Source: Candidatus Wolfebacteria bacterium GW2011_GWB1_47_1
GTDB taxonomy: Bacteria > Patescibacteriota > Minisyncoccia > UBA6257 > UBA9933
DNA length: 64,000 bases
Direction: 5' to 3'
Assembly (NCBI GenBank): GCA_001029635.1
Contig: CP011209.1
Coordinates: 16,983 to 80,982, forward strand
Each line of letters opens with the position of its first letter. The first letter of the stretch is position 1. Shown here piece by piece: positions 5,388 through 32,167 of this stretch. A model generated the notes under the pieces. That model saw nothing but the letters and a program-made list of their open reading frames with translations, made no database searches and was not told the origin of the DNA. Position numbers and translations under genes: made by a program.

Positions 5388-5397
5388 CCTTTTATAA

Positions 5398-6591
5398 TCA
5401 AAATTCCTTTACTCGCACTTCTCCACTTATCAGCTTTGGTAATAATACATCCCTAATATCGCCAAGCTGTTCCATTTGCAATGAGTTGCTTGCTATAGAC
5501 CTAAAGCAAGTTTCGACAAATCCAGCGAATATATCTAAAGTTTTCTTATCTGGCACAACTACTGGATAACCTCTGAGCATCTCTACTTGTACGCGCTGTC
5601 TACCCGATGTACCACTCATCATTTTTATTGCGAAATTGCGAAAAGAAGTATTGCGAGCAAGTAAATATCCATATTCCGAAGGAAGGGGCTTCTTTACTCT
5701 TATAACAATGAATTCGGTAGAACCCCATGCACTCACTCCCTCTGGCAAACACTGGATAAAAGCTGTTTTCCCATTTTCTAAACAGGGAGTGATCCGCGCA
5801 AAAAGAGTATCTCCATTACGAAATCTTGATCCCGAAGAAAATTTGCGCATCAATGGCTTCTCCGTCCAACTCCCTTGTATGGGCAATGCAGACATATCAA
5901 GATAAGGAATTTCCCCGTCCTTTTGAACCACTTCTGATGGATTTAGCTCAATAACATCTTTAAGTTGAGTTAAGTGCCACCCCTTTGGTAATTCTTTGCC
6001 TTTCTCAAACCATTCGTTAAAAATTGCTTGTGCGGTAGCTTCGAGAGTTTTGTTCTGTTTTCGTAGTAATTCTATTTTGTTATCCAAGCTTAAAAGTACT
6101 CCTGCTATTTCTTTTTGTTCTGTTATTGGAGGGAGTTTAATTTCTAAACTCCTCATTAAAGAAGCGGACGCCTCACTAAAAGTAGATCCTGATGAAAGTT
6201 TTTCTATACGATTGCTATTATTTTTTAGCCAATAGTAGATAAAAAGATAGTGCGTATTCTTTTCATCGCATATTATATTTTTAAACCCCTGATTTGTAGT
6301 TAGCTCATTACCCGCAATTGCTACGTATCCTATGGGCGCACGAGACGAAAATAAAACCGTATTTTTAGGAAGCATTTGCGCTGAGGAGTTTCTAATACCC
6401 TCTTCAGTTATATTCCTTTCTCCACGAGTAATATAAACGCCTTTAAAGCTTGAGAGATCTTTAGGCGTTATCCATGCGATATCTCCTCCCCAATATGTTA
6501 CCTCTTTTGTAGAGGGCGTAGCCCCACTAGCAATTTTAGCAACGTCCCCAAGTGTAGTTTCGACCCAATCGCCAATAGCTGCATTCTTCAT
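5398..6591 (-). CDS. hsdS: Type I restriction-modification specificity subunit (HsdS)
   Basis: 397 aa with two target-recognition domains separated by the conserved central helix [24 protein letters not shown]. It overlaps hsdM by 4 nt. Confidence 0.9.
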
Positions 6592-8153
6592 ATTTCAAAT
6601 CCAACCTTTTTTAATTGGTTTTTTATCTCCATATTTATATCCTCCTCCTCGGCAATTTGTCCCTTAAGAGTAGTGGTGAGGCGTTTCATTTTCTCTTCAA
6701 ACGGCTCACTGTCTATTTTTCCGTCTGCAATGCCCGCATATCTTCCGGGGGTAAGGACATAGCCGTGCTTCTGCACATCCGCAAACGTTGCTGACTTACA
6801 AAATCCTTTTATGTCTTCGTATTTATTGTCCTTCTGTCGCCATTCGTGATATGTTCCCGCGATCTTTTGTATATCTTCTTCAGTAAATTCCTTATGCGTA
6901 CTGTCTGCCATAAAGCCCATTTCCGACGCGTCAATAAAGAGAAGCTCTCCAGTTCGCTTTCTATCTCCGTTCCCTAAACGCTTGCGCGAAATAAACCAAA
7001 GACACGCAGGAATACCCGTATTATAAAATAGTTGCTTTGGAAGTGATACGATACAATCCACTAAATCCTCATCGACAAGTTTCTGGCGTATTTCCCCCTC
7101 CCCGCTTTGATTGGACGACAAAGAGCCGTTCGAGAGAACGGTTGCCATTACTCCTTTTGGTGCGAGGTGGTGGATCATATGCTCTATCCACGCAAAGTTT
7201 GCATTGCCGTCTGGAGGAAGCCCATATTTCCATCGCGCATCTCCTTTTAGAATATCCCATCCCCAGTCGCTTTGATTAAATGGTGGATTGGCGAGAATAT
7301 AATCTGCTTTTAAGTCCGGATGTGCATCTTTTAAGAATGATCCCTCACTATTCCAAGCTACTTGCGATCCATCTATACCACGCAAGGCGAGGTTCATTCG
7401 GCATAAGCGGTATGTGGTGTGGTTACTTTCCTGTCCGTAAATAGAAATATCTTCCATTCGTCCACGGTGTGCGACCACAAACTTTTCACTCATTACAAAC
7501 ATACCTCCCGAGCCACACGCAGGGTCATATACGCGCCCTGAAAGAGGCTCTATCATTTCAACCATAAGCTCAACGATGCTTCGTGGGGTATAGAACTGCC
7601 CGCCCTTTTTGCCTTCAAGAGATGCAAATTCACCAAGAAAATACTCATATACGCGACCGATAAGGTCTTTTGATTTCTCGCTTTCGATACCGAGCGCAAC
7701 ATCCGCGATAAGATCAACCAGTCCACCGAGTGCTGCTTTATCCAAATTCGGTTTTGCGTATTCCTTTGGCAATATCCCTTTCAGCGTTGGGTTTACCTTC
7801 TCGATAGCTTCCATTGCCGCGTCCAAGTCCTTACCGATACTCGGAAGCTTTGCCCGTGAGTGGAGATGCGTCCATCGCGCTTCTACTGGTACATAAAATA
7901 CATTTTCTGCTTTGTATTCATCCTGATCTTCGGGGTCTGCTCCTTCGTATTCACCTTTACCTTCTGAGAGTTTTTCGTAATGCACATCAAACGCATCCGA
8001 TATGTACTTTAAAAAAATAAGTCCAAGCACGATATGCTTGTACTCTGCTGCATCTATATTCTTTCTGAGCTTGTCGGCCGCCTTAAAAAGTTGGGCCTCA
8101 AAGTGCCCACTTCCTTGATTTGCATTCTTTTTAGTCTTCTTCTGTTCTTCCAT
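6588..8153 (-). CDS. hsdM: Type I restriction-modification N6-adenine DNA methyltransferase subunit (HsdM)
   Basis: 521 aa with a typical HsdM N-terminal domain, SAM motif I ([11 protein letters not shown]) and motif IV NPPF ([12 protein letters not shown]). Confidence 0.95.
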
Positions 8154-8242
8154 AAGGGTCTGAGCCCTTCTCTATTGGGGCTTAAAGTTCCTACTATTTT
8201 ACCACATTTTGCTTATTTTTTCCAGTGAAATATGGGGTGTGT

Positions 8243-8548
8243 TCACCTTTTCACTTCCCATCCTTTCCTCCTGTAGCACTCTCTCATCTCCTCAATAAAT
8301 TCACCCGTAGGGCGAATATGTCCTCCCATCTCTAAGGTTTTAATAGTACTGTATGCTTTCAATTCTTCGAGGCAATATTTTGCCTTTTCGGGTAATTCTC
8401 TTTTTTCTATTTTGGGTAGTTGAAGAAGAAACAATTCATATATAAGAAACCCCATCATTATAACAACCAACGCCAAAAGCCACATGACTGGGGCGCTCTT
8501 TACTCCCCCGCCTTCCTCTTCTGTGTTTTGTGGCTCTTTTGATGTCAT
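8243..8548 (-). CDS. hypothetical small membrane protein
   Basis: 101 aa with one predicted TM helix (WLLALVVIMMGFLIYELFLL). AT-rich block. Confidence 0.5.
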   Translation of the reverse strand: MTSKEPQNTEEEGGGVKSAPVMWLLALVVIMMGFLIYELFLLQLPKIEKRELPEKAKYCLEELKAYSTIKTLEMGGHIRPTGEFIEEMRECYRRKGWEVKR

Positions 8549-8568
8549 TATCTATCCCTTTAGGTCTT

Positions 8569-9108
8569 TTACATCGATGAATATTGATCGTCATTAGGAA
8601 TTGGCTGATGTTGCTCCTGAGTTCCTTCAAAAATATCCGCTCCGCCCCCGTAAGGTATATATGCCGATGATACTCGCTCCTCATCCTCCTTTGATCTTTG
8701 AGATGGTGCACTTGGGATTTCCGCAAGTTGCTCCTTGAGCCGCTGGAAAACTTCTTTCGGTGTATTCTTAATATCCCAAAATATAGGCTTTTGCTCCGGC
8801 TTTATCTGAGTTAACTCCTCCGATGTCATAGGTCTACGCCTACCCCACTCATCAAATCCTCGTAATTCGAGCTCTCTAATGACCGCAGGACTACTAAAAA
8901 CCTTATGTGGGGCATCAACAACACTTTCCCTATATCCTGCCTCTCTTAAGGCCTTTGCCTTGCTTTTAAAGCCACCTACTTGCCAGCAATCTAATGCTTT
9001 TATTTGCATTGGGCTTATTTTTCGTACGATCTTCTCCATATCATATATAGTACCACCTTTCGCTAAATATGCCTTTATCGTGTCGCGCTCTGCCCATTTT
9101 CCTACCAT
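8569..9108 (-). CDS. hypothetical protein; HTH segment resembles a phage terminase small subunit
   Basis: 179 aa. The segment W..GGFKSKAKALREAGYRESVVDAPHKVFSSPAVIRELE fits the Terminase_2 HTH pattern (..AIRAGYS......LL..P.V...I). The similarity is inferred and not verified. Confidence 0.5.
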   Translation of the reverse strand: MVGKWAERDTIKAYLAKGGTIYDMEKIVRKISPMQIKALDCWQVGGFKSKAKALREAGYRESVVDAPHKVFSSPAVIRELELRGFDEWGRRRPMTSEELTQIKPEQKPIFWDIKNTPKEVFQRLKEQLAEIPSAPSQRSKEDEERVSSAYIPYGGGADIFEGTQEQHQPIPNDDQYSSM

Positions 9109-9177
9109 TTCCTACCTAATACCCCCCCTATCTACTCCTCGATATTGCATAATTTAACCTCATAGGGTAGCGCCCTA

Positions 9178-9735
9178 TCATGCGTTAAATCCGCTGTTAA
9201 TATATTCGTACCCTTCAATCCTTCGCGCGTCAGTTATTGATGTGTGTGATTTTTCGAAGATTTTAGTAAGTGAATTGAGTATCAGCCATTCTGGATCCTT
9301 ATTTTCCTGCTTATAAATATATATGAGGGATTTGTATATATCCTGCTTCCACTCGCTTATCGCAGTCCATATATCTTGCAATCCTATACTATTCCCTTCT
9401 TTAAGAAACGTCAGCCGATATTGCGTAATGTCTTCCCCGAGAAAACCGCGTATTTGTTCAAACTCCATATCTAATAAGCCAAGGTCTATCTCTGTTTCTT
9501 CGGAGAAGTAGTCATTGTATGCATGTTTTGCAAACTCACCCACAATAACTGCCGTAGCAACAGCATACATAAAACTCGAAGCGCTTTCGGCTCCTCCTTG
9601 TATCAAGAACTGCTCGTTCTCTGAGAGCTTTTGCTCTACTTCGTAGCCCCATTTGGCACATCGACCAATAAGCTCCCCGTCAGAATAATCAAGGATTTCC
9701 CTGTATACCTTTTTGTATAATTCTTGTCCTTCCAT
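9178..9735 (-). CDS. hypothetical protein
   Basis: 185 aa ORF that tiles with its neighbours in the AT-rich block. No recognisable motif. Confidence 0.5.
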   Translation of the reverse strand: MEGQELYKKVYREILDYSDGELIGRCAKWGYEVEQKLSENEQFLIQGGAESASSFMYAVATAVIVGEFAKHAYNDYFSEETEIDLGLLDMEFEQIRGFLGEDITQYRLTFLKEGNSIGLQDIWTAISEWKQDIYKSLIYIYKQENKDPEWLILNSLTKIFEKSHTSITDARRIEGYEYINSGFNA

Positions 9736-9747
9736 AAAAGTGCATAT

Positions 9748-10701
9748 TTACTCACATCTAACGCTTGTTTGCGCTGTGCCATTCACAATACCACCGCTAT
9801 ATTGGGTGGTAGACCAACATTGAGTAGCCTTTTGTGGTGCTGGGATTTGTTGTGACTGCTGCTCAATTTGAAGCAACTGCTGACTTACAGACAAAAAAAT
9901 ACTCTTTGTAGCAACTAAACTGTCAATGTATTTCAATGACTGAGAAAAACTATCGGCTTTTTGCTGCTCAAATTTCTGCGCAGCAGTGTTAAACTTTATT
10001 ACCAACCCCAAGAAACGATTTATCTCCTCATTCCCCATAGACAGAACCTTTGATAAATTAGCAGGAGTAGTCCCCTGATCTATTATCCCTTTTATTTCTG
10101 AAGTCATTTCGTATTGCTTCTTTACCTCCGTCTCTAATGGCTCATACAGCGTATTGTAATCCGTTTGCGCACTTTGTATGTATTTTGTGAATTTATTTGC
10201 ATCACTTAGGGCGAAGTTCTTTATCCCTATATCACTTGCCGTATCCGCAAAATCATTTAACAAATCGGCTCTGGCTTGAGCGGAGCTTTTTGCATACGAG
10301 ATATAATTATTCTTAGTTGTTCGAATTGCCCTTAAGAGGGTGCCGAAGTCTTCAATCTGCTGATCTAATTGGCTCAATTTGTCCATATCAGACATCACTT
10401 CCTTTACCAAATCGTCTGCTTTTTTAGTATTAGTGCTCTCCTGCTTTGTGGGTGCGATAATTTTCTGCGTTCCCTGTTCTTTTATTATTCCTTCTCCGCT
10501 TTTGATTTCTTGTACAGCACCGGAAGTTGAGACCTCTTCGCGATTTAAGGGAACCGTGCTCAAAGCTGTCTTTTTATTTATTTCTTCTTGCTTACTATTC
10601 TTTGCCCCTACAAAATAATAGCTCGTTCCCAGTATGGCCAAAATGCCCACAGCCATAAGCACTACTACCGGAACCTGTATAAAACCTTTTATTGATTTCA
10701 T
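9748..10701 (-). CDS. hypothetical membrane-anchored or secreted coiled-coil protein
   Basis: 317 aa. N-terminal TM/signal anchor (VPVVVLMAVGILAILG), a Q-rich coiled-coil body and two C-terminal Cys. Confidence 0.55.
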   Translation of the reverse strand: MKSIKGFIQVPVVVLMAVGILAILGTSYYFVGAKNSKQEEINKKTALSTVPLNREEVSTSGAVQEIKSGEGIIKEQGTQKIIAPTKQESTNTKKADDLVKEVMSDMDKLSQLDQQIEDFGTLLRAIRTTKNNYISYAKSSAQARADLLNDFADTASDIGIKNFALSDANKFTKYIQSAQTDYNTLYEPLETEVKKQYEMTSEIKGIIDQGTTPANLSKVLSMGNEEINRFLGLVIKFNTAAQKFEQQKADSFSQSLKYIDSLVATKSIFLSVSQQLLQIEQQSQQIPAPQKATQCWSTTQYSGGIVNGTAQTSVRCE

Positions 10702-11038
10702 TATGGTGATTATTTGCTTACTATTACCGTTAATTTATTCCGGACGTGGGTAAACAAAAAACCCACCACCAGATAGGCCTTACGGCCATATGCAAGTTTC
10801 CCTGCATAACGCAACAAGCGATCCTGATGATGGGATCTTTAAGCTTGTTGCGATTTTGCACCATACCTATCGCCGAGGCGGTAGGGTTAGGCACTTGCCC
10901 TTGCGGGCTCTATTCGGTTGTTAGCTTGATTATACGGCAAAAAATACGCTTTGGGTATGTTTATAACTTTTTACACTAAACCTGCCTCTATTGGGCTTAT
11001 TTTGCCCGTACATAGGTATTGGAATAAAAAGAGGGCCA

Positions 11039-11434
11039 TTACTGATCCTCTCTTAAATCCCATAGCTTCCAATAGAGGTCGCTATTACCCCTTTCTAAAC
11101 GCGGGTCTTTTTTTAATTTTTTATAAATTTGATCCTGTATATAATAAGCATCACTCCAAATATGCTCTTTTGATAATGTCTCATTATCTATCCCCTCCCG
11201 ATATGGATTATCTATTTCAAACTCAATTTCTGACGTCTTTACGAGAAAATGTTCAATCCAGTGATAATCAGTATTTGTATGTTCTTGGTTCCAATATGTC
11301 TTTATTATTATAGGCAACTCATTAAGCACTACTTTTATCTCTGCTTTTTGATACTGCAAAAAATGCTTCATTCCGTCCTCATAAAGCTTTATCTGTTCAG
11401 GAGTTGGTTTTTCTTCAAAAGAAATTTTAGTCAT
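11039..11434 (-). CDS. hypothetical protein
   Basis: 131 aa ORF with no recognisable motif. Confidence 0.5.
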   Translation of the reverse strand: MTKISFEEKPTPEQIKLYEDGMKHFLQYQKAEIKVVLNELPIIIKTYWNQEHTNTDYHWIEHFLVKTSEIEFEIDNPYREGIDNETLSKEHIWSDAYYIQDQIYKKLKKDPRLERGNSDLYWKLWDLREDQ

Positions 11435-11447
11435 GTATTATGTATAT

Positions 11448-11972
11448 TTAATCAATATTCACATGATCCGTTCTGATGCAAACGACATTAAATATTTCTT
11501 GCGTAAAAAACCCGAAAATTCTCCCGCCTCCTGAATATTGAACCTCTAAAATCTCAACCTCAGGAGATAAATTTCTATACAAAAATTCATACTTGCCTGA
11601 ATTCCCCACTTTATCTCTTATTAGTCCGGATTGTTGCGCGTCAGATTTTGTAGTCGCATTTATTTCAGAAAATTTACGGATTAGCGACTTCGCAGCTTCT
11701 TTCTGAATTTCATCGATTTGCCTATGCTCTAAGCTTTTTTGTTTTAAATGAATTGAGATGTTTTTCCCCTCGGGATCATCTCCGGTTGGAATAGTGATAG
11801 CGTCTGGTATTTTTCCTGCAAATAAAGTTTGTTCGATTGCCTTAACGGCATGTTCTAAATAAGGGGAAATCTCCTTATCCTTATTTTCTTTCCCAAATCT
11901 TTCGATCAATTCAAAAGCCTTAGCCTTAAACCATTTACTGTCCTTTTTTGATTTCTTCGAGCCTTCTCCCAT
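11448..11972 (-). CDS. hypothetical protein; candidate toxin partner of the upstream Panacea-domain gene (possible RelE/ParE-like fold at the C-terminus)
   Basis: 174 aa. Its start overlaps the 3' end of the DUF4065 gene by ~38 nt. The C-terminus GKYEFLYRNL...GGGRIFGFFTQEIFNVVCIRTDH loosely resembles the RelE/HigB pattern (..YRI.Y.....V.VL.IGHR). Confidence 0.45.
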   Translation of the reverse strand: MGEGSKKSKKDSKWFKAKAFELIERFGKENKDKEISPYLEHAVKAIEQTLFAGKIPDAITIPTGDDPEGKNISIHLKQKSLEHRQIDEIQKEAAKSLIRKFSEINATTKSDAQQSGLIRDKVGNSGKYEFLYRNLSPEVEILEVQYSGGGRIFGFFTQEIFNVVCIRTDHVNID

Positions 11973-12417
11973 AATATTCTTTCATAAGATCGGTGTTGAT
12001 TTCGTTATTGCAATATTCATCAATTGCACAACCGCTTCTTGCCTTTTGCCACGGTTCTTCATTATGAGTGAGGAGTTCTAAATAGTCAGCATCAAACTTC
12101 CCGTAGGCACTCCATACATTATCAAGCAATTTCTCTTCTTTATCTGATAAGGCCTCAAAATCACTTTTATTTACAGTAATACTAATATTTCCAAATCCAA
12201 ATTTTTTAAATTCAAAATATATCAATGGAATTGCTGGCCCATGAACCCATGCCTCGATTTGGTCGTCAAAAATCTTCTCCCCATTAAAAACAAGGCTCCA
12301 TGCTTGCGCATAATATAACAACTTTTGTATTTTTTTGTTAGTAATCTCCTCACCAGCAATCTGACTTTTGCTGATAAAATATTCAGCAATCACTAAACTT
12401 TTTGATTTTTGCATCAT
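11935..12417 (-). CDS. Panacea domain (DUF4065, SocA/PanA-like) protein, putative antitoxin
   Basis: 160 aa. KIQKLLYYAQAWSLVFNGEKIFDDQIEAWVHGPAIP matches the DUF4065 signature (KLQKLLYYAQ.W.L......F...I.AW..GPV). Confidence 0.65.
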   Translation of the reverse strand: MMQKSKSLVIAEYFISKSQIAGEEITNKKIQKLLYYAQAWSLVFNGEKIFDDQIEAWVHGPAIPLIYFEFKKFGFGNISITVNKSDFEALSDKEEKLLDNVWSAYGKFDADYLELLTHNEEPWQKARSGCAIDEYCNNEINTDLMKEYYGRRLEEIKKGQ

Positions 12418-21004: not shown

Positions 21005-21110
21005 TACTGTATTGTATCAGATTTTATTCTTCTTACTATATAACGACGCTAAGCGTGGCTTGTTTCCGTATTAGTATTCCTTGATTCCCATCATTATTAT
21101 TCATAAGCCA

Positions 21111-21154
21111 TTGACATGATCACTTTAAACTAGTATTCAATAATCAGCTATTAT
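21111..21154 (+). promoter_or_regulatory. promoter and palindromic operator of paralog cassette 1
   Basis: TTGACA-N17-TATTCA followed directly by ATAATCAGCTATTAT. GAGGAGG SD 5-6 nt before the ATG at 21176. Confidence 0.6.
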
Positions 21155-21175
21155 CACCTGTTTTGAGGAGGCTCT

Positions 21176-21553
21176 ATGTTTAGCAAACTACGAGTGGATC
21201 CACACAAGAAATGCTTGGTCAACCTACCGGAAGGATGGGTCACGTTGTTCCTAGCAAGAACCCGCGAAAGTGCATTCCTTTTCGGAGCCGTTATTGGTCT
21301 CCGGGATAAATGCCTCCCGACAGACGAGGGCATACAACGCGAAATAGGAGGATTCGCTAAAGTTCTCCAGTTCACTGTGGAAAATATCCACGTCCTCGAT
21401 GTTTATCATGGTCATAAATACCCTCAAGGTGGAGGCCTGGTTGACGTTAACCTTCTAGACAAATCTGTGATCTGGGCAGGCGTAGACGAATGCGGGCGCA
21501 ACGAATTCTTCGGCGAACGCATTCCGCTTGCTGACGTTCTCGTTACCCTCTAA
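21176..21553 (+). CDS. hypothetical protein, member 1 of a tandem three-paralog family
   Basis: 125 aa. Shares GLP.GWVTLFLA, CLP, HGHKY..GGG and W...DECG...FGERI.P.DVLV.L with the two downstream paralogs. Confidence 0.65.
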   Translation: MFSKLRVDPHKKCLVNLPEGWVTLFLARTRESAFLFGAVIGLRDKCLPTDEGIQREIGGFAKVLQFTVENIHVLDVYHGHKYPQGGGLVDVNLLDKSVIWAGVDECGRNEFFGERIPLADVLVTL

Positions 21554-21572
21554 GCACTTCTCCGTTTCATCT

Positions 21573-21602
21573 GGAGCCCTCCTTCTCGGAGGGCTTTTTT
21601 TA
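21573..21602 (+). terminator. terminator of paralog 1
   Basis: GAGCCCTCC-TTCT-CGGAGGGCT followed by TTTTTTT, which runs directly into the next TTGACA. Confidence 0.8.
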
Positions 21603-21603
21603 T

Positions 21604-21647
21604 TGACATGCATTCGATAACTTGGTATTCAATAATCAGCTGTTATC
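21604..21647 (+). promoter_or_regulatory. promoter and palindromic operator of paralog cassette 2
   Basis: TTGACA-N17-TATTCA then ATAATCAGCTGTTAT. GGGGAG SD before the ATG at 21669. Confidence 0.6.
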
Positions 21648-21668
21648 AAACGTTTACGGGGAGACTTT

Positions 21669-22037
21669 ATGAACTTGCGCATCGTCAATGATACTATCGT
21701 CGGATTGCCTGACGGCAATACTGTTTTCTTCCTCGCCAAGGCGAACCTACACGGGGTTATCTACTGCTACGCCATATTCGGTCCCACCGCCACCTGTCTT
21801 CCAAAACCGGGAGAAACCTTTACCGAGCTGTTCGACGCAAAGGTTGCCGTCTTTCGCACCGATGGCAGCATGTACGCATTGTACTACGCACATCATGGGC
21901 ACAAATACGCCCTTGGTGGCGGTATGGTCGAGATTATCTCCGGCCGTTCCATCGTCTGGACCACTCCTGATGAATGCGGCTGTACGCGAATCTTCGGCGA
22001 GCGCATCCACCCTCGCGATATCCTTATCGCACTCTAG
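21669..22037 (+). CDS. hypothetical protein, paralog 2
   Basis: 122 aa with the same conserved blocks (FFLAKA, CLP, HHGHKY.LGGGM, TPDECG..RIFGERIHPRDILIAL). Confidence 0.65.
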   Translation: MNLRIVNDTIVGLPDGNTVFFLAKANLHGVIYCYAIFGPTATCLPKPGETFTELFDAKVAVFRTDGSMYALYYAHHGHKYALGGGMVEIISGRSIVWTTPDECGCTRIFGERIHPRDILIAL

Positions 22038-22040
22038 CTC

Positions 22041-22069
22041 AAAGCCCCGCGTATGCGGGGCTTTTTTGT
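22041..22069 (+). terminator. terminator of paralog 2
   Basis: AGCCCCGC-GTAT-GCGGGGCT followed by TTTTTTG. Confidence 0.8.
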
Positions 22070-22112
22070 TGACATCGTTTTTATAATCTGGTATTCAATA
22101 ATCAGCTATTAT
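22069..22112 (+). promoter_or_regulatory. promoter and palindromic operator of paralog cassette 3
   Basis: TTGACA-N17-TATTCA then ATAATCAGCTATTAT. GAGGAGG SD before the ATG at 22134. Confidence 0.6.
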
Positions 22113-22133
22113 AAAACGCTTTGAGGAGGGTAT

Positions 22134-22514
22134 ATGTTTAAGCACCTACGCGTAAACGAACAAACAAAGTGTATCGATGGCTTGCCGAAAGAATGGGTTA
22201 CTCTTTTCCTGGCAAAGGTCTCGGCTCGGTATGGTTTGCTCACCCATTGCGCCGTCATATGCCCCGACGTACTCCTCCCTGAAAAGAATCAGTTTTACTC
22301 CTCGATCGTAGGTGCTAAAGTCGTCCTATTTAACGGAAGAGCATTCAACTTGATCGACATCATCGAAGGATACAAGGTTCGGAAAGGCGGATGCCGCGTT
22401 CAGTATATAAAGAAAGGCCTCGTCGACTTTCCAGGAGAAATCCATAGTTATGACGGGGAGCATACCTTCGAAGATCGTCTTCTTCGCCCACAGGATGTTC
22501 TTGTCGCACTTTAA
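22134..22514 (+). CDS. hypothetical protein, paralog 3
   Basis: 126 aa. The most diverged copy (GLPKEWVTLFLAK retained, GHKY replaced by EGYKVRKGG), ending in QDVLVAL. Confidence 0.6.
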   Translation: MFKHLRVNEQTKCIDGLPKEWVTLFLAKVSARYGLLTHCAVICPDVLLPEKNQFYSSIVGAKVVLFNGRAFNLIDIIEGYKVRKGGCRVQYIKKGLVDFPGEIHSYDGEHTFEDRLLRPQDVLVAL

Positions 22515-22535
22515 TCTCCTCCCCGTTTCACCCAA

Positions 22536-22562
22536 AAGCCCCGCTTGCGCGGGGCCTTTTTG
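22536..22562 (+). terminator. terminator of paralog 3
   Basis: GCCCCGC-TTGC-GCGGGGC followed by CTTTTTG. Confidence 0.75.
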
Positions 22563-28185: not shown

Positions 28186-28851
28186 TTATTCCCTCGGGAG
28201 AAAACTTGTATCTCCAAAATGTCTCAGCGCTTCATCGTTTAATATTCGCATCGCGTGAGGTTCTCTAGCTATCCATTCACCTATATACCGCTTTACTTTA
28301 TCGGAAAATAAGAGGTTCCACTGTTTTTTTATCCTGTATGCCCGCACGATATTTAATACATGTGGCTGATCGGCCAATGACCCACCTTTTAGTGGTATAT
28401 CGAGCTGCATCGTCCTCATTGCATCGTTAAATCCTTCGCATACAAAACTATTATCGGATAAATTTATACAAATGGCGTCTATGTTATAAAATGCACCATC
28501 AGCTATCTGTTCTTTCTCTTCGTTGATAATGCCCTTCTTAACTGGCCAGTGATCTTCGATACTCCATATATCAAATATGCGATCATCTATTCGCATCTTA
28601 TATCCTCCAAATCTATTCTTTGTAGCGGAGCTACCCTTCATGCACTCCTGCAAATCAGCTCCTTTACAGCACACGATCATATCAAAATCCCTTGGCTGCT
28701 TATTCTTTAATGCAATATCGCGTACTGCACCGCCAATCAAGATCACATCGCCACGGTCTTCAATGCTCCTCATAACCGCATCTAGTCGCTCATTCTCTCT
28801 CATTTTTGCAATATATGCTACAACTTTCTTTGCGTGTTCCGATGTAAACAT
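28186..28851 (-). CDS. minimal pol-beta nucleotidyltransferase with a CCA-adding/poly(A)-polymerase-type head domain only
   Basis: 221 aa. ILIGGAVRDIALKNKQPRDFDMIV matches the class II tRNA-NTase head signature (GGAVRD...D.D). No recognisable neck/body or RNA-binding domain follows. Confidence 0.65.
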   Translation of the reverse strand: MFTSEHAKKVVAYIAKMRENERLDAVMRSIEDRGDVILIGGAVRDIALKNKQPRDFDMIVCCKGADLQECMKGSSATKNRFGGYKMRIDDRIFDIWSIEDHWPVKKGIINEEKEQIADGAFYNIDAICINLSDNSFVCEGFNDAMRTMQLDIPLKGGSLADQPHVLNIVRAYRIKKQWNLLFSDKVKRYIGEWIAREPHAMRILNDEALRHFGDTSFLPRE

Positions 28852-29012: not shown

Positions 29013-29780
29013 TTATGCGCCATTTTGTTTTCGTTCTATCGGTTGTCCTTCGGATTGAGATCGATACCCTCCCCCTTGCTGTGGACGTCCCTGGTCTCGT
29101 CGTTGAGGAAACCGAGGTTGTTGCAAGGGCTGTCGTTGTAGCGGCCTTCGCTGGTCGCCTCCGCGCTGCTGTGACCCTTCCGCACGTGGACGTGGCGTCT
29201 GCGCATCTTGTTTTGGCGACGCCTCGCGCACTGGTTGCTCTCCATCTTCTTTACGCACTCCTCCTCCGATGCGCGCCGCCCGTACTCCCTGCTGTGGTCG
29301 CCGTGGGCGAATTGCCCCCTGCTTACGCAACTCGATGTTCCTCAAGAAATTATATGCCTGTTTCAAAACACGCTGACTATCTTCCTTGGTTAGTACTTTG
29401 AGCGCTTCCTTGTAGGTAAACCATCCATATCCTTCATGCTTCTCCCCTTGCGCATCGGTTTGCTCTGGTAGTTTTATCCGCTGCTGGGCCGTTTCGGCAA
29501 GATAAAATACGATCGTTTTATAGATCTTTTCCTTATTCCTCCAGAATGTGAAATTCTCCGATGTCTTGAAATTCTCATTGAATCGGAGGTCATTTCGCGT
29601 AAGGCCTGTTTCTTCCCTCACTTCGCGAACCGCTGTTTGGAAGCTTTTTTCTTCGCTTTCAATTTTCCCCTTCGGGAAGTTCCAATAGTTGTGTCCGTGA
29701 TATAAAATCAGAAAACGAGGGCCCTCCGCAGTTGTTCGGTACGCTATGATACCCGCGGAAATTTCTCGCATATTGCACAT
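29013..29780 (-). CDS. Nudix hydrolase with a ~105 aa Arg/Gln/Pro-rich low-complexity C-terminal tail
   Basis: Nudix box GKIESEEKSFQTAVREVREETGL (G-x5-E-x7-REUxEExGU). The tail (RPRRPQQGVRAARIGGG...QRRPLQRQPLQQPRFPQRRDQGRPQQGGG) is GC-rich. The start may be M4 (~29771). The terminator hairpin overlaps the stop. Confidence 0.85.
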   Translation of the reverse strand: MCNMREISAGIIAYRTTAEGPRFLILYHGHNYWNFPKGKIESEEKSFQTAVREVREETGLTRNDLRFNENFKTSENFTFWRNKEKIYKTIVFYLAETAQQRIKLPEQTDAQGEKHEGYGWFTYKEALKVLTKEDSQRVLKQAYNFLRNIELRKQGAIRPRRPQQGVRAARIGGGVRKEDGEQPVREASPKQDAQTPRPRAEGSQQRGGDQRRPLQRQPLQQPRFPQRRDQGRPQQGGGYRSQSEGQPIERKQNGA

Positions 29781-29825
29781 ACTATAGCATAGATCTGGCG
29801 GGGATACAAATTGTATAGGTTAGTC

Positions 29826-29879
29826 GGTTAACGCGTTAACGGGTTGGTAAATGCAGAAATACTGGATTCCGGAATGACA
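29826..29879 (+). repeat. composite hairpin repeat (copy D): GGTTAACGCGTTAAC palindrome plus CTGGATTCCGGAATGACA
   Basis: Shares both modules with copy C at 20071-20169. Confidence 0.7.
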
Positions 29880-29891
29880 CCGTGGGAACAT

Positions 29892-29920
29892 AAAAAAGGG
29901 GCGGATTCTCCGCCCCTTAC
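29892..29920 (-). terminator. terminator T1 of the small-gene array
   Basis: On the minus strand: AAGGGGCGGAGAATCCGCCCCTT followed by TTTTTT. Confidence 0.75.
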
Positions 29921-29923
29921 GTA

Positions 29924-30124
29924 TTACCTGTGATTACCCAGTGCCAACTCGGTCTGTTTTTGGATCTCCTTGGAGGCTCCCAAAATATCGGACAGTTCGT
30001 TCTCGAGCCTTGTTCGCTCGAACCGAAGCGCCTCCTCTTCTCCCGCGATCTCTCCGAATCGCTGTTCTATTACAACCACCCTCGCCTGTATCCTTTTTAC
30101 ATCTTCATCCACTAGACTTACCAT
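29924..30124 (-). CDS. small coiled-coil hypothetical protein (paralog of 30236..30451)
   Basis: 66 aa, charged and heptad-like. It has its own promoter/terminator module. Similar to the next small gene (IEQRFGEIAGEEEALRFERTRLENEL vs IASRLKGIEEEIRQRNTERDNLLLEL). Confidence 0.45.
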   Translation of the reverse strand: MVSLVDEDVKRIQARVVVIEQRFGEIAGEEEALRFERTRLENELSDILGASKEIQKQTELALGNHR

Positions 30125-30193
30125 GTCGATTACCTCCCGCCTCTCCTGTGGTGCATTTTAAATTTCTATCGTTTGTATACCACTTTTCTATCA

Positions 30194-30232
30194 CTTTTGC
30201 AAATCAAAAAAAGGCGGATACTCCGCCCCTTT
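30194..30232 (-). terminator. terminator plus promoter module T2 (reiterated intergenic unit)
   Basis: On the minus strand: GGGGCGGAGTATCCGCCTTTTTTTGATTTGCAAAA (hairpin plus T-run) then TTGCAA-N17-TATACA (promoter for gene 29924..30124). Confidence 0.65.
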
Positions 30233-30235
30233 GTC

Positions 30236-30451
30236 TTATGCCTGCGTCTCGAATATCTTATTCACCTGAATCCCTATCTGGGCAACGGACCTCCTTGTCT
30301 CCTCCAGCTCAAGTAAAAGATTGTCCCGCTCAGTGTTGCGTTGCCTTATTTCCTCTTCGATTCCTTTCAAACGAGATGCGATGGTCGTAATGCGATCTCT
30401 TACCGCTTGCGCCTCTACACTGGCGGGCGATCCAGGCCGTGTACTCGACAT
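30236..30451 (-). CDS. small coiled-coil hypothetical protein
   Basis: 71 aa, paralogous to 29924..30124. Confidence 0.45.
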   Translation of the reverse strand: MSSTRPGSPASVEAQAVRDRITTIASRLKGIEEEIRQRNTERDNLLLELEETRRSVAQIGIQVNKIFETQA

Positions 30452-30520
30452 AAAAAATTCCTCCCCTAAGATTGGACCCCTAATTTAATTTACTATATTT
30501 TATATATCATTCCTTTGCCG

Positions 30521-30558
30521 ATTTTGCAACAAAAAAAGGGCGGATCACTCCGCCCCCC
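30521..30558 (-). terminator. terminator plus promoter module T3
   Basis: GGGGGGGCGGAGTGATCCGCCCTTTTTTTGTTGCAAAATCGG on the minus strand. It shares the ~38 nt core with T2 and T4. Confidence 0.65.
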
Positions 30559-30568
30559 CTGCTACCAC

Positions 30569-30931
30569 CTAACGTATCCCGAAGGACGCAATCCTACTGA
30601 GATATAGGATCCCATAAACATCTTCGCGCATCTTTTTAGACCCCCTCCCAAGACGCACCTGCCTGAATCTTTTTTCAAATTCTTCAAGCTCAGCTACCAG
30701 CGTCCAGGTTTCGTTCCAAATCTTCCGCAGCTCGTCTTCCCCGTCATCATCGTCCCAGGTCCCTTCTACAATTCGTTCCCAATGAATAGTAACCCGCCTG
30801 TCTGTGAGCCTGTACCGTCTCGAGTTTATCGCCTGCAAGACTTGCACTAGCTCGTCGAACCCGCCACCACCCGGCTCCAGGTTGTTAGTGGCCCTTCTTA
30901 ACAAGATTACACTGTCATATAATTCCGCCAT
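30569..30931 (-). CDS. hypothetical acidic protein
   Basis: Trimmed to M45 of the track ORF (MAELYDSVILLRRATNN...). The upstream 44 codons translate the T4 terminator/promoter/SD repeat (AAAGGAGGAG lies 6 nt before this ATG). Confidence 0.5.
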   Translation of the reverse strand: MAELYDSVILLRRATNNLEPGGGGFDELVQVLQAINSRRYRLTDRRVTIHWERIVEGTWDDDDGEDELRKIWNETWTLVAELEEFEKRFRQVRLGRGSKKMREDVYGILYLSRIASFGIR

Positions 30932-30991
30932 AGCAGACTCCTCCTTTTCGCTTTTATTAATTTCTACCTTCTCTATACCAACTTTCTCCCT

Positions 30992-31030
30992 TTTTTGCAA
31001 ATCAAAAAAAGGGCGGATCACTCCGCCCCG
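30992..31030 (-). terminator. terminator plus promoter module T4
   Basis: Minus strand: GGGGCGGAGTGATCCGCCCTTTTTTTGATTTGCAAAAAAGGGAGAAAGTTGGTATAGAG, i.e. hairpin, T-run, then TTGCAA-N16-TATAGA. Confidence 0.65.
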
Positions 31031-31035
31031 TTCCC

Positions 31036-31563
31036 TTACTTGCCCATGCGCCCCGCAAAGCAACTACGGACGTTCGCAATGGACTCGTCTACCGCCGCCT
31101 TTTCACTCTTGCGCGCGGCTATCTTTTCACCGAGCAATGCATACTCCCTTTCCAATTCCGGAATCAACCGGCACAGGGCCGTGTAGTAGTCCTCGGGGGT
31201 CTCCTCCTCCGCGACTACGGGCTCGATCGCGATAGGCTTCTTGCCCACCTTCCGAGGACGCTGCTTGATCGTGACAATCTCGTAGGAGATGAATATCCCC
31301 TGGTGCCATTGGTACAGCCCCGACTTCATGCGCTGGCCCGGAGCCTTGTTGAACTCGATCAACTCAAGCACCTTAGCCTCCGCAAGCACCTGGATCGTCG
31401 CCGTTACCAGACTATGGCACGGCCTGTTCTCCATCTTTGCATCCAGATGCGCATGGATCCCACGTATCCGCGATGTTGGCATTTCTTTTAGCAGTTCGAT
31501 GATCATCGCCATAACGCGCTGCTGTTTCATCGTCATACCCAGTTGCTTCTTTGCTTCGGTCAT
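31036..31563 (-). CDS. hypothetical protein with an N-terminal winged-helix-like segment (putative regulator)
   Basis: 175 aa. QQRVMAMIIELLKEMPTSRIRGIHAHLDAKMENRPCHSLVTATIQVLAEAKVLELIEF resembles wHTH DNA-binding domains. It is the first gene of the array that follows rpsJ. Confidence 0.45.
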   Translation of the reverse strand: MTEAKKQLGMTMKQQRVMAMIIELLKEMPTSRIRGIHAHLDAKMENRPCHSLVTATIQVLAEAKVLELIEFNKAPGQRMKSGLYQWHQGIFISYEIVTIKQRPRKVGKKPIAIEPVVAEEETPEDYYTALCRLIPELEREYALLGEKIAARKSEKAAVDESIANVRSCFAGRMGK

Positions 31564-31635
31564 CTATCCCTCCAATATTCCATAATGTGTAGTGCTTTTT
31601 CTTTTGTACAAATAAACAGCCCCTTTGTCAATCCA

Positions 31636-31664
31636 AACAAAAACACCCCGAAGGGTGTTTTTGA
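31636..31664. terminator. terminator after rpsJ
   Basis: AAAAACACCCCGAAGGGTGTTTTTG. Confidence 0.8.
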
Positions 31665-31668
31665 GCGA

Positions 31669-31995
31669 TTATTTCATTTTGATCTCGATATCAACTCCCG
31701 AAGGCAGGTTGAGTGTGCTCAAAGATTCAATGATCTTTTGGCTCGGATTAACGATGTCGATAATCCGATTGTGCACACGCAGCTCGAACTGCTCACGCGC
31801 GGTCTTGTGGACGAACGTGGAGCGATTCACGGTGTACCGCTTGAATTCAGTCGGCAACGGAATCGGACCAACTATTTCTGCTCCGTTTCTGACCGCCGTA
31901 TCGACGATCTGCTTGATCGAGTTATCGATCAGCTTGTGGTCGTACGATCGTACGCGTAATCGCAATTTAGATTGTGCTTCTTCTTTCTTGGCCAT
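31669..31995 (-). CDS. rpsJ: 30S ribosomal protein S10
   Basis: Starts at M3 of the track ORF (MAKKEEAQSKLRLRVRSYDHKLIDNSIKQIVDTAVRNGAE...), canonical S10. Confidence 0.95.
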   Translation of the reverse strand: MAKKEEAQSKLRLRVRSYDHKLIDNSIKQIVDTAVRNGAEIVGPIPLPTEFKRYTVNRSTFVHKTAREQFELRVHNRIIDIVNPSQKIIESLSTLNLPSGVDIEIKMK

Positions 31996-32167
31996 TGTCA
32001 AAATACTTTAATGAATTAATCGCTTTTCTATTTTTCTCTCCGAAAAACGGTTGCATTCGGATGAAGTGCGAGGCACGGGGAAATCGATGAGGAAGCTGTA
32101 CAGAAGTACTGCGACCGAATCGATGGGGCCCCGTAACGAAGCAATTCGCCGAATGCAGACGTTTTTC

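Follow-up and report, generated by a model that had tools for sequence, protein, structure and literature searches.

A strain-variable islet of small genes with a reused expression linker downstream of rpsJ in Candidatus Wolfebacteria

Introduction

In a groundwater Candidatus Wolfebacteria genome, a small islet of orphan genes is located 3' of rpsJ, the gene for ribosomal protein S10; it consists of one to four genes depending on the strain. The islet was analysed here in a stretch of 64,000 nucleotides from Candidatus Wolfebacteria bacterium GW2011_GWB1_47_1 (contig CP011209.1), referred to as the window, in which four genes, designated g1 to g4, are present on the minus strand between rpsJ and a gene for a Nudix hydrolase. 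The islet is strain-variable, and its units are joined by copies of a roughly 90-nt linker carrying expression signals, in which the terminator of one unit is followed by the promoter and leader of the next. Its logic is that of a phage moron and not that of an integron. In our judgement the locus is, with slightly more confidence than doubt, a recombination-prone accessory islet of moron-like monocistronic units between rpsJ and the Nudix gene in one clade of Candidatus Wolfebacteria. Its content most likely changes by ordinary recombination at the linkers and not by an integron-type system.

Bacteria of the candidate phyla radiation (CPR) have very small genomes, and the gain, testing and loss of accessory genes in these organisms are poorly understood. 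The locus beside rpsJ would be a compact example, defined by its sequence, of a recombination hot spot at a core ribosomal gene, where new small genes appear with ready-made expression signals. The main points of interest are the linker-bounded gene turnover in a CPR genome and the allele system of g1, a lineage-restricted protein with a winged-helix fold predicted at low confidence, which is present as ancient, exchanged alleles.

The Units and Their Linkers

A first-pass annotation of the window had described four minus-strand open reading frames (ORFs) after rpsJ. These are present, with 175 aa for g1, 71 aa for g3 and 66 aa for g4, while g2 codes for 120 aa and not for 121 aa. Automatic gene callers extend g2 to 150 aa, starting at a GTG within the hairpin; the start giving 120 aa is backed by two orthologues called at exactly this length and by an AGGAGG Shine-Dalgarno sequence before the ATG. 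The positions of all elements are listed in Table 1.

Each of the four genes (4/4) ends in a GGGGCGGAG-N2-3-TCCGCC(CC) hairpin with 6-7 T, which starts 8-17 nt past the stop codon. The stems are perfect GC stems of 6-10 bp with loops of 3-4 nt, and the hairpins fold with -14 to -19 kcal/mol (z -3.1 to -4.3). Because short perfect GC stems with U-runs follow the stop codons, the hairpins are predicted to be intrinsic (Rho-independent) terminators. The copies after g1 (T2) and g2 (T3) are identical across 27 nt including the T-run. The exact hairpin 18-mer occurs twice where 0.04 occurrences are expected, and two matches were reached in 0 of 100 shuffles. In a regular-expression scan of the 64 kb, no copy of the GGCGG...CCGCC hairpin family besides these four was identified, and the remaining perfect-stem terminators of the window are unrelated in sequence.

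The three short genes are each preceded by a hairpin, a T-run, a -35 element and a TATA-type -10 element, as the first-pass annotation had proposed. In all three linkers, TTGCAA is followed after exactly 17 nt by TATAGA, TATATA or TATACA, with a TGn before each (extended -10), and a leader of the form (A/G)TAG(A/T)AA(A)TTAA is common to them. The stretch of about 60 nt that had been reported as shared between the linkers after g1 and g3 was also found, with 80% identity over 59 nt (linkers 2 and 4), and linker 3, after g2, shows 64%. By blastn among the four units, the match is limited to the first 25-37 nt, comprising the hairpin, T-run and -35 element, and no DNA similarity was found in the coding parts. 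The reiterated linker is the sole DNA common to the units.

For the hairpin after rpsJ, T1 (-16.9 kcal/mol, z = -4.3), the claim that it is a hairpin only did not hold. It is followed by a promoter-like site, P1 (TTGACA-17 nt-TACAAA), which was read from the sequence and is kept in the related loci L005, L006, L133 and L134. The promoter of linker 2, P2 (TTGCAA-17 nt-TATAGA with TGG), is conserved together with its leader in L007, L008 and L133. Promoters with a TGn-extended -10 are present 19 times in the intergenic regions of the window, compared to 10.6 expected. All four ORFs are preceded by a Shine-Dalgarno sequence of the GGAGG type. A unit would thus comprise a sigma-70-type promoter with extended -10, a short leader with Shine-Dalgarno sequence, one small ORF and a GC hairpin/U-run terminator, and each unit is predicted to be separately transcribed and terminated. 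At the level of sequence, this anatomy agrees with the cassette-like organisation with a reused linker that had been suggested.

Gene Content in Related Strains

The window has a match in Candidatus Wolfebacteria bacterium GW2011_GWE1_48_7 (LCMT01000006.1), and identical contigs are present in Rifle-type groundwater metagenomes. The collection lists the exact g1 protein in 68 blocks, the contigs concerned being at most 984 kb long. In related genomes, the flanks show 88-95% nucleotide identity to the window, and residues 1-138 of the Nudix hydrolase are 99-100% identical, with a synonymous divergence (dS) of 0.35-0.63. A variable cassette content in relatives had been named beforehand as a test, and between these near-identical flanks one, two or four genes are present. 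L005 and L006 contain only g1 (rpsJ, T1/P1, g1 of 187 aa, hairpin, Nudix). Two genes are present in L007 (g1' of 183 aa, hairpin, P2, g2, a degenerate hairpin, Nudix), in L008 (g1'' of 186 aa, hairpin, P2, g2, hairpin, spacer) and in L133, where a gene for a 651-aa secreted protein, not rpsJ, is followed by g1 (178 aa), a hairpin, an insert of about 100 nt, P2, a g2-like gene (143 aa), the same hairpin, a spacer and Nudix. All four genes were found in the window strain only. Two further arrangements carry g1: L134 consists of the end of rpsJ, T1, an insert, P1, g1 (194 aa) and a hairpin, at which the contig ends, and L152-L154 contain the most distant g1 (194 aa, 21-27% identical) directly after tuf-rpsJ.

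Every boundary between these versions coincides with a hairpin copy. Past the last hairpin, the window, L008 and L133 have a homologous spacer, which places g3 and g4, together with their linkers, precisely between two copies of the hairpin. Aligning hairpin and downstream spacer identified the last hairpin of the window, T5, as the counterpart of the post-g2 hairpin in L008 and L133. The post-g1 and post-g2 hairpins of a given genome match each other exactly (window, GGGGCGGAGTGATCCGCCC; L008; L133, AGAGGCGGAGCAATCCGCCTCT twice), but between genomes they differ, with GGGGCGGAGTGATCCGCCC in the window and AGAGGCGGAGCAATCCGCCTCT in L133. This points to homogenisation by gene conversion or to recent copying.

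The g1 Allele System

In all five related loci which keep upstream sequence, g1 is located directly after rpsJ; another upstream gene was found in one further locus, L133. The order tuf-rpsJ-g1 of the window is shared by L006 and L152-L154. The dS of g1 is 1.7-3, compared to 0.35-0.6 in the flanks. When the window is compared to L005, dS is 0.35 and the nonsynonymous divergence (dN) 0 for the Nudix gene, with values of 1.8 and 0.5, respectively, for g1; between L005 and L006, dS is 0.18 for the Nudix gene and 0.56 for g1. In L007 and L008, T1 is identical (39/39 nt) and the block of hairpin, P2 and g2 has 84% nucleotide identity, but the two g1 genes give no alignment at the DNA level and their proteins are 31% identical. 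The alleles of g1 thus greatly exceed their flanks in age and are mosaic relative to them; they are hypervariable and replaced between conserved flanks. With a dN/dS of 0.2-0.3, g1 codes for a constrained protein and is not decaying. Both g1 and g2 are under purifying selection.

A diversity-generating retroelement as the cause of the g1 variability was rejected, because g1 diverges over its full length, with saturation at synonymous sites, and the window contains no reverse transcriptase.

The GC content at third codon positions (GC3) of g1 is 0.62-0.73 in 7/8 alleles (0.73 in the window), compared to 0.49 +/- 0.08 in the long genes of the window. This might reflect a foreign origin, a codon bias related to expression, or biased gene conversion if the locus is a hot spot of recombination.

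Contigs often break in or just past g1, as is expected if strains of a population differ there. Independent assemblies from three samples (L152-L154) end 97 nt past g1 and one (L134) inside the post-g1 hairpin, which suggests that assembly breaks just downstream of g1 arise from repeats or strain variation. In the GenBank assembly LCPB01000021.1, g1 has a 114-nt in-frame deletion (window ~31191-31300), and in another scaffold an N-gap begins at the same base (L010 and L011), the rest being 99.7-100% identical over 8 kb. The deletion reflects either population heterogeneity or an assembly artefact.

For the protein, the winged-helix-like N-terminus proposed by the first-pass annotation was supported at low confidence, by an AlphaFold2 model and by matches below threshold. 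In the model, three helices and a beta-hairpin (residues 12-97) are followed by a basic linker, which is disordered, and by a long helix (residues 123-173) that is predicted with confidence, the predicted local distance difference test (pLDDT) score being 80-95 over residues 121-170. In the N-terminal domain, the pLDDT is about 60-69 across the three helices and 32-46 across the wing. The best PDB profile match was the replication terminator protein (RTP) of B. subtilis, with an E value of 0.11, which is below significance. A pairwise hhalign comparison with an RTP sequence gave P = 2e-4 and a probability of 45% over the recognition helix and wing. For the models of g1 and g2, Foldseek revealed no match in the PDB at E <= 1e-3. 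The g1 family is small: a word-indexed search gave 4 clusters, and in an exhaustive hidden Markov model search 9 cluster representatives out of 1.84 billion were recovered. None of its 11 members has a Pfam or NCBIfam match. We infer that g1 is a dimeric winged-helix DNA-binding protein with an RTP- or PadR-like architecture, which may act as a regulator.

The Small Genes g2, g3 and g4

The gene g2 has two further orthologues with 79-81% identity, and the version in L133 is 45% identical. Among g2 orthologues, dS is 0.45-0.58, as in the flanks, and dN/dS is 0.19. The product had been called acidic, which applies only mildly, with an isoelectric point of 5.5, a net charge of -2.4 and a single DDDDGEDE patch. 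No significant family match or structural neighbour was found for g2 in Pfam, NCBIfam or, by Foldseek, in the PDB.

For g3 and g4, codon usage was scored with a model of this genome, in which in-frame windows have a log-likelihood ratio of 0.17 +/- 0.08 per codon and off-frame windows -0.24 +/- 0.15. The value for g3 is 0.118 per codon, reached by 0.2% of off-frame windows, and that for g4 is 0.207, reached by none; in both cases the annotated frame is the best of six, and the two genes score as native coding sequence. The two genes have a GGAGG-type Shine-Dalgarno sequence 8-9 nt before the ATG and a heptad-like hydrophobic spacing, and in g3 70% of the heptad a/d positions are hydrophobic. 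The GC content of g2-g4 is 0.50-0.52 and their GC3 0.55-0.57, inside the range of the genome. Presumably, g2 is a helical-bundle partner and g3 and g4 are small helical peptides.

None of the four proteins has a significant match in Pfam, PHROGs, PADLOC or NCBIfam. The best PADLOC match, of a coiled-coil type, had E = 0.006, and no defence-system family was among the matches. A toxin-antitoxin pair was rejected, since family matches are absent and every gene has its own predicted promoter and terminator. The paralogy of g3 and g4 that had been put forward was not borne out: BLASTP gave no alignment, and the Smith-Waterman score of 38, compared to a shuffle mean of 28.8 +/- 5.4, is not significant (p = 0.07). 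A 28-aa stretch is common to the C-terminal half of g2 and g3, with p = 0.0005 uncorrected for about 13 comparisons. For the other protein pairs among the units, Smith-Waterman alignment with shuffling gave no similarity above chance.

Searches for the Linker Elsewhere

The proposal to look for the module at other places yielded no further copy in the window, in a viral collection or in a metagenome collection. The P2 promoter/leader pattern gave five chance promoter matches in metagenome contigs, all in unrelated organisms, and an alignment of g1 gave nothing there. The exact g1 sequence was missed too, so that the collection evidently lacks these organisms. In viral contigs, the pattern of hairpin plus TTGCAAAA gave ten unrelated single matches; one viral-contig match resembles the linker module but is located in a phage of a proteobacterial type. 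In genome contigs, the hairpin pattern gave at least 120 matches, which are ordinary terminators across many phyla and are uninformative on the copy number in Wolfebacteria. A role of the hairpin like that of a DNA-uptake sequence was rejected, as the 64 kb contain no other copies.

Among the hairpin-pattern matches listed, one is from Wolfebacteria, namely L033:1-1400 (Candidatus Wolfebacteria RIFOXYD12_FULL_48_21, MGIW01000006.1). Here, an exact 47-nt promoter direct repeat (93-139 and 579-625) flanks an ORF for a 109-aa zinc-ribbon protein and the hairpin GGGGCGGAGTTATCCGCCCC plus T6. The ORF has a weak, sub-threshold match to the Lar family (E = 0.0036). In its order of promoter, gene, hairpin and promoter, this stretch parallels the rpsJ islet, although the locus is unrelated; it is followed by an ORF of about 229 aa, which was read as a putative HAD-like protein. 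The case is suggestive.

Proposed Recombination at the Linkers and Alternative Explanations

Since it is reiterated and conserved, the linker could serve as a substrate of RecA-type recombination, its copies being nearly identical over 27-60 nt. Units would be deleted, duplicated and homogenised when linker copies undergo unequal crossover or gene conversion. Incoming DNA of related strains would replace g1, with the T1/P1 region and the hairpin/P2 linker as arms, and might also add units, and no dedicated recombinase would be involved. Parsimony favours a gain of g3 and g4 in the lineage of the window, because L133, L008 and L007 lack them.

Several points weigh against the recombination-prone islet. 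Separate transcription is predicted from sequence only, and recombination at the linkers was deduced from breakpoints. The series comprises eight independent alleles, mostly on short contigs. Gain and loss of g3-g4 are not polarised, and a deletion between direct repeats is mechanistically easy. The confinement of the linker module to the rpsJ locus holds for the 64-kb window, and copies elsewhere in the genome are possible. As to the source of the small genes, g3 has matches in the same strain only among 5.8e9 proteins, and g4 has no match in family libraries, which was the sole kind of search made for this gene. The winged helix of g1 is based on an N-terminal domain with pLDDT values of 32-69 and on sub-threshold matches.

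The islet might instead have arisen by plain tandem duplication and divergence, so that g2-g4 are old paralogs, the linker has been kept by purifying selection and the strain differences are deletions. We consider this unlikely. A second tandem array is present in the window (21099-22560, plus strand), with three paralogous ORFan genes of 125, 122 and 126 aa, each having a 65-nt promoter/leader repeat and its own terminator hairpin; the paralogs are 36-37% identical, yet the repeats are 66-80% identical. Monocistronic small-gene arrays with conserved linkers are therefore the house style of this genome, which adds weight to ordinary duplication as the origin of the linker repeats, as do the stretch common to g2 and g3, the score of g3 against g4, the native codon usage of g3 and g4 and the ease of deletion between direct repeats. 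House style, however, accounts neither for the mosaicism of g1, nor for the unrelated ORFs, nor for the exact identity of hairpins. The ORFs are unequal in length (120, 71 and 66 aa) and lack DNA similarity, and BLASTP finds nothing between g3 and g4. The complete identity of T2 and T3 would still require a recent conversion, the replacement of g1 alleles and the L007/L008 mosaic would be left unexplained, and at least 2-3 independent losses of g3-g4 would be needed (L133, L008, L007, L005/L006). A different question is whether g3 and g4 are proteins at all, or small RNAs or decaying remnants with fortuitous ORFs. The lack of g3 homologues outside its own strain and the shortness of both genes are in line with the latter, which is nevertheless improbable in view of their Shine-Dalgarno sequences, their genome-typical codon usage in the best of six frames and the lack of an Rfam family match. 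In the array, Rfam gave no match; the sub-threshold, terminator-like matches obtained are near the L20 gene (rplT) only.

If g1 were the centre of a regulon, its dimer would bind the hairpin DNA or the P2-type promoter/leader and control g2-g4 and also the Nudix gene, and the linker would owe its conservation to a role as operator; this is compatible with the recombination-prone islet, to which it would add a function, but rather improbable. It would fit the winged-helix domain with a long, possibly dimerising helix, the inverted repeat GGCGGA-N3-4-TCCGCC about 10 nt upstream of each -35, the invariable position of g1 as the first gene, and the strong conservation of P2 promoter and leader even in L133, where g2 is 45% identical. 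The recognition helix of g1, however, varies widely among alleles while the hairpin core is constant, with no visible co-variation; moreover, g1 occurs without any P2-type linker in L005 and L006, and an unrelated terminator follows g1 in the distant L152 lineage. Very improbable is a dedicated capture system, integron-like or of a new kind, in which the GGCGGA...TCCGCC hairpin is acted upon by a recombinase whose gene lies beyond the window. In its favour, 10/11 copies read from six lineages have the same hairpin core (one copy in L007 has TTCGCC, and a second L007 hairpin is degenerate), whereas different hairpins have taken the place of the rpsJ terminator T1; identical hairpins also bracket unrelated ORFs, and in L033 an unrelated ORF with a very similar hairpin is located between two exact promoter copies. 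Against this, the Pfam lists of the genes called in the 64 kb contain neither integrases nor recombinases nor transposases, the hairpins have the canonical form of terminators and lack attC cores and extrahelical bases, a promoter is predicted in each unit, the same hairpin pattern is an ordinary terminator in many unrelated bacteria, and the window holds no further copies of it.

In its most far-reaching form, linker recombination would amount to an integrase-free cassette system in Wolfebacteria and perhaps other CPR bacteria whose genomes are tiny and have few mobile-element enzymes. A portable terminator-promoter-leader linker would allow small ORFs between its copies to be excised, captured, swapped and at once expressed by homologous recombination, and g1 would be a strain-specific determinant, such as an immunity or recognition regulator, under diversifying or balancing selection. 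The L033 locus would fit as a second, recent instance of such a process. We regard this as a speculation with little chance of being correct. If linker-mediated exchange is true, it would represent a recombinase-free route to cassette-like gene turnover, and g1 would become a candidate for a factor of strain specificity. If nothing beyond local duplication and deletion is at work, orphan genes simply form a variable islet of an ordinary kind here.

Flanking Genes and Other Features of the Locus

On the minus strand of the window, the order of genes is infA, rpmJ, rpsM, rpsK, rpsD, rpoA, rplQ, tuf, rpsJ, g1-g4, the Nudix hydrolase and a small nucleotidyltransferase. Beyond the latter, the L20 ribosomal protein gene (rplT in the present text) and infC, which codes for translation initiation factor IF3, are located on the opposite strand. 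From the order tuf-rpsJ-four small genes, it follows that the S10 operon ends after rpsJ, and it terminates at rpsJ in this clade. The first-pass annotation had correctly placed the break of the S10 operon at this point and the Nudix and nucleotidyltransferase genes next to the array.

Table 1. Elements of the rpsJ islet and its flanks (window coordinates unless a related locus is named)
Element	Position	Strand	Description	Basis
rpsJ (S10)	31669..31995	-	conserved left flank	Pfam Ribosomal_S10, E = 5e-32
T1 and P1	31603..31663	-	rpsJ terminator hairpin 31638-31663; promoter-like site 31631-31603	terminator scan
g1	31036..31563	-	175 aa; predicted winged-helix N-domain ~12-97, K/R/P-rich linker 98-122, long C-terminal helix 123-173	
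Linker 2	30932..31031	-	hairpin 31010-31029 and T-run; P2 30972-31000; leader GTAGAAATTAA; Shine-Dalgarno AGGAGG	
g2	30569..30931	-	120 aa; predicted four-helix bundle with DDDDGEDE patch	AlphaFold2, pLDDT 79.5, predicted template modelling score (pTM) 0.67
Linker 3	30452..30558	-	hairpin 30538-30555; P3 30501-30529; leader ATAGTAAATTAA; Shine-Dalgarno GGGGAGG	
g3	30236..30451	-	71 aa; charged, probably helical orphan peptide	codon usage
Linker 4	30125..30232	-	hairpin 30208-30232; P4 30174-30202; leader ATAGAAATTTAA; Shine-Dalgarno GGGAGG	
g4	29924..30124	-	66 aa; charged, probably helical orphan peptide	codon usage
T5	29896..29918	-	terminal hairpin and T-run without linker promoter	terminator scan, folding
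Spacer	29781..29895	-	palindromic-element remnant GTCATTCCGGAATCCAG (29862-29878), then Nudix promoter 29781-29809	
Nudix hydrolase gene	29013..29771	-	conserved right flank, 252 aa from MREISAG	Pfam NUDIX, E = 2e-17
Palindromic remnants	window 29862-29878; L008:1310-1370; L133:2920-2990, 3600-3645; L152:5840-5890, 6655-6682			

The Nudix gene is probably leaderless (29769-29809, minus strand), since no Shine-Dalgarno sequence is present between its -10 element TATAGT, whose end is at 29781, and the conserved ATG at 29771 (MREISAG). The adjoining nucleotidyltransferase gene (28186-28851, minus strand) has a GC content of 0.39-0.41, compared to about 0.46-0.50 in the adjoining genes, and is missing in L005, where the L20 gene comes straight after Nudix. 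It looks like a separate lineage-specific insertion.

In the spacer between tuf and rpsJ (32038-32167), an insertion of about 123 nt was identified, with 19-nt terminal inverted repeats (32042-32060 and 32149-32167) that are 89% complementary. It is not present in L006 and looks like a miniature inverted-repeat transposable element. Remnants of palindromic elements (GTCATTCCGGAAT...ATCCGGAATCCAG, and CATACCGGCGnAGGCCGGTATC) dot the intergenic spacers of the locus in several lineages. At a distance from the islet (~3165-12417, minus strand), the window contains a defence-type cluster in which genes for the type I restriction-modification proteins HsdM, HsdS and HsdR occur with one for an AAA_13 ATPase. 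A SocA_Panacea-domain protein is also encoded in this cluster, close to small ORFans.

Comparison with Known Systems

In integrons, the cassettes are promoterless, and the integrase IntI with attI and the cassette promoter Pc adjoins the array. The attC sites are imperfect palindromes of 57-141 nt with R''/L''-L'/R' cores (GTTRRRY) and extrahelical bases. Like the islet, integron arrays are a series of short unrelated ORFs with a similar hairpin-forming repeat after each, and their content varies between strains. Unlike them, the islet is without IntI or a Pc/attI platform, has terminators in place of attC and a predicted promoter per unit. The GTTRRRY core is absent from its hairpins. An integron array was thus rejected, and with it the integron-like reading raised by the first-pass annotation.

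Tandem paralogs of the kind found in the second array share with the islet promoter/leader repeats, individual terminators and, in the second array, a linker conserved above the coding sequence. In contrast to them, the islet has ORFs which are not detectably related and are unequal in length, and it homogenises the terminator hairpin.

Variable loci exchanged by homologous recombination include the pneumococcal capsule loci (dexB-aliA) and the competence pherotype loci. Here too, ancient divergent alleles, in the islet those of g1, are located between near-identical flanks and occur in mosaic combinations. The islet differs in that a single gene of 0.5 kb is exchanged and that a terminator-promoter linker of some 90 nt, in place of a housekeeping gene, would serve as one arm.

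For g1 itself, RTP and PadR provide the nearest architecture, in which a long C-terminal helix mediates dimerisation. As in B. subtilis RTP (PDB 1bm9, 1f4k) and PadR, the model of g1 predicts an N-terminal winged helix followed by a long C-terminal helix. The g1 protein differs by a basic linker of 25 residues and has no Pfam match, and all of its matches are below significance.

A prophage or a moron in the strict sense was rejected for the lack of a phage context: PHROGs gave no match in a neighbourhood of ribosomal and translation genes, tblastn of g1 and g2 against 50,697 phage records gave nothing, and neither did the alignment of g2 against viral contigs. Morons are additions with their own promoter and terminator and a deviating GC content, which are located between conserved genes in phage genomes (PMC3594210). 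Like them, the units of the islet are small extra genes with promoter- and terminator-like sequences between conserved neighbours, and their presence varies, with g2-g4 missing in L005/L006 and g3-g4 in L007/L008/L133. The islet is, however, chromosomal in a CPR bacterium without phage genes nearby, and the GC content of g2-g4 is that of the surroundings. It goes beyond the moron concept in that several units are chained by one reused linker.

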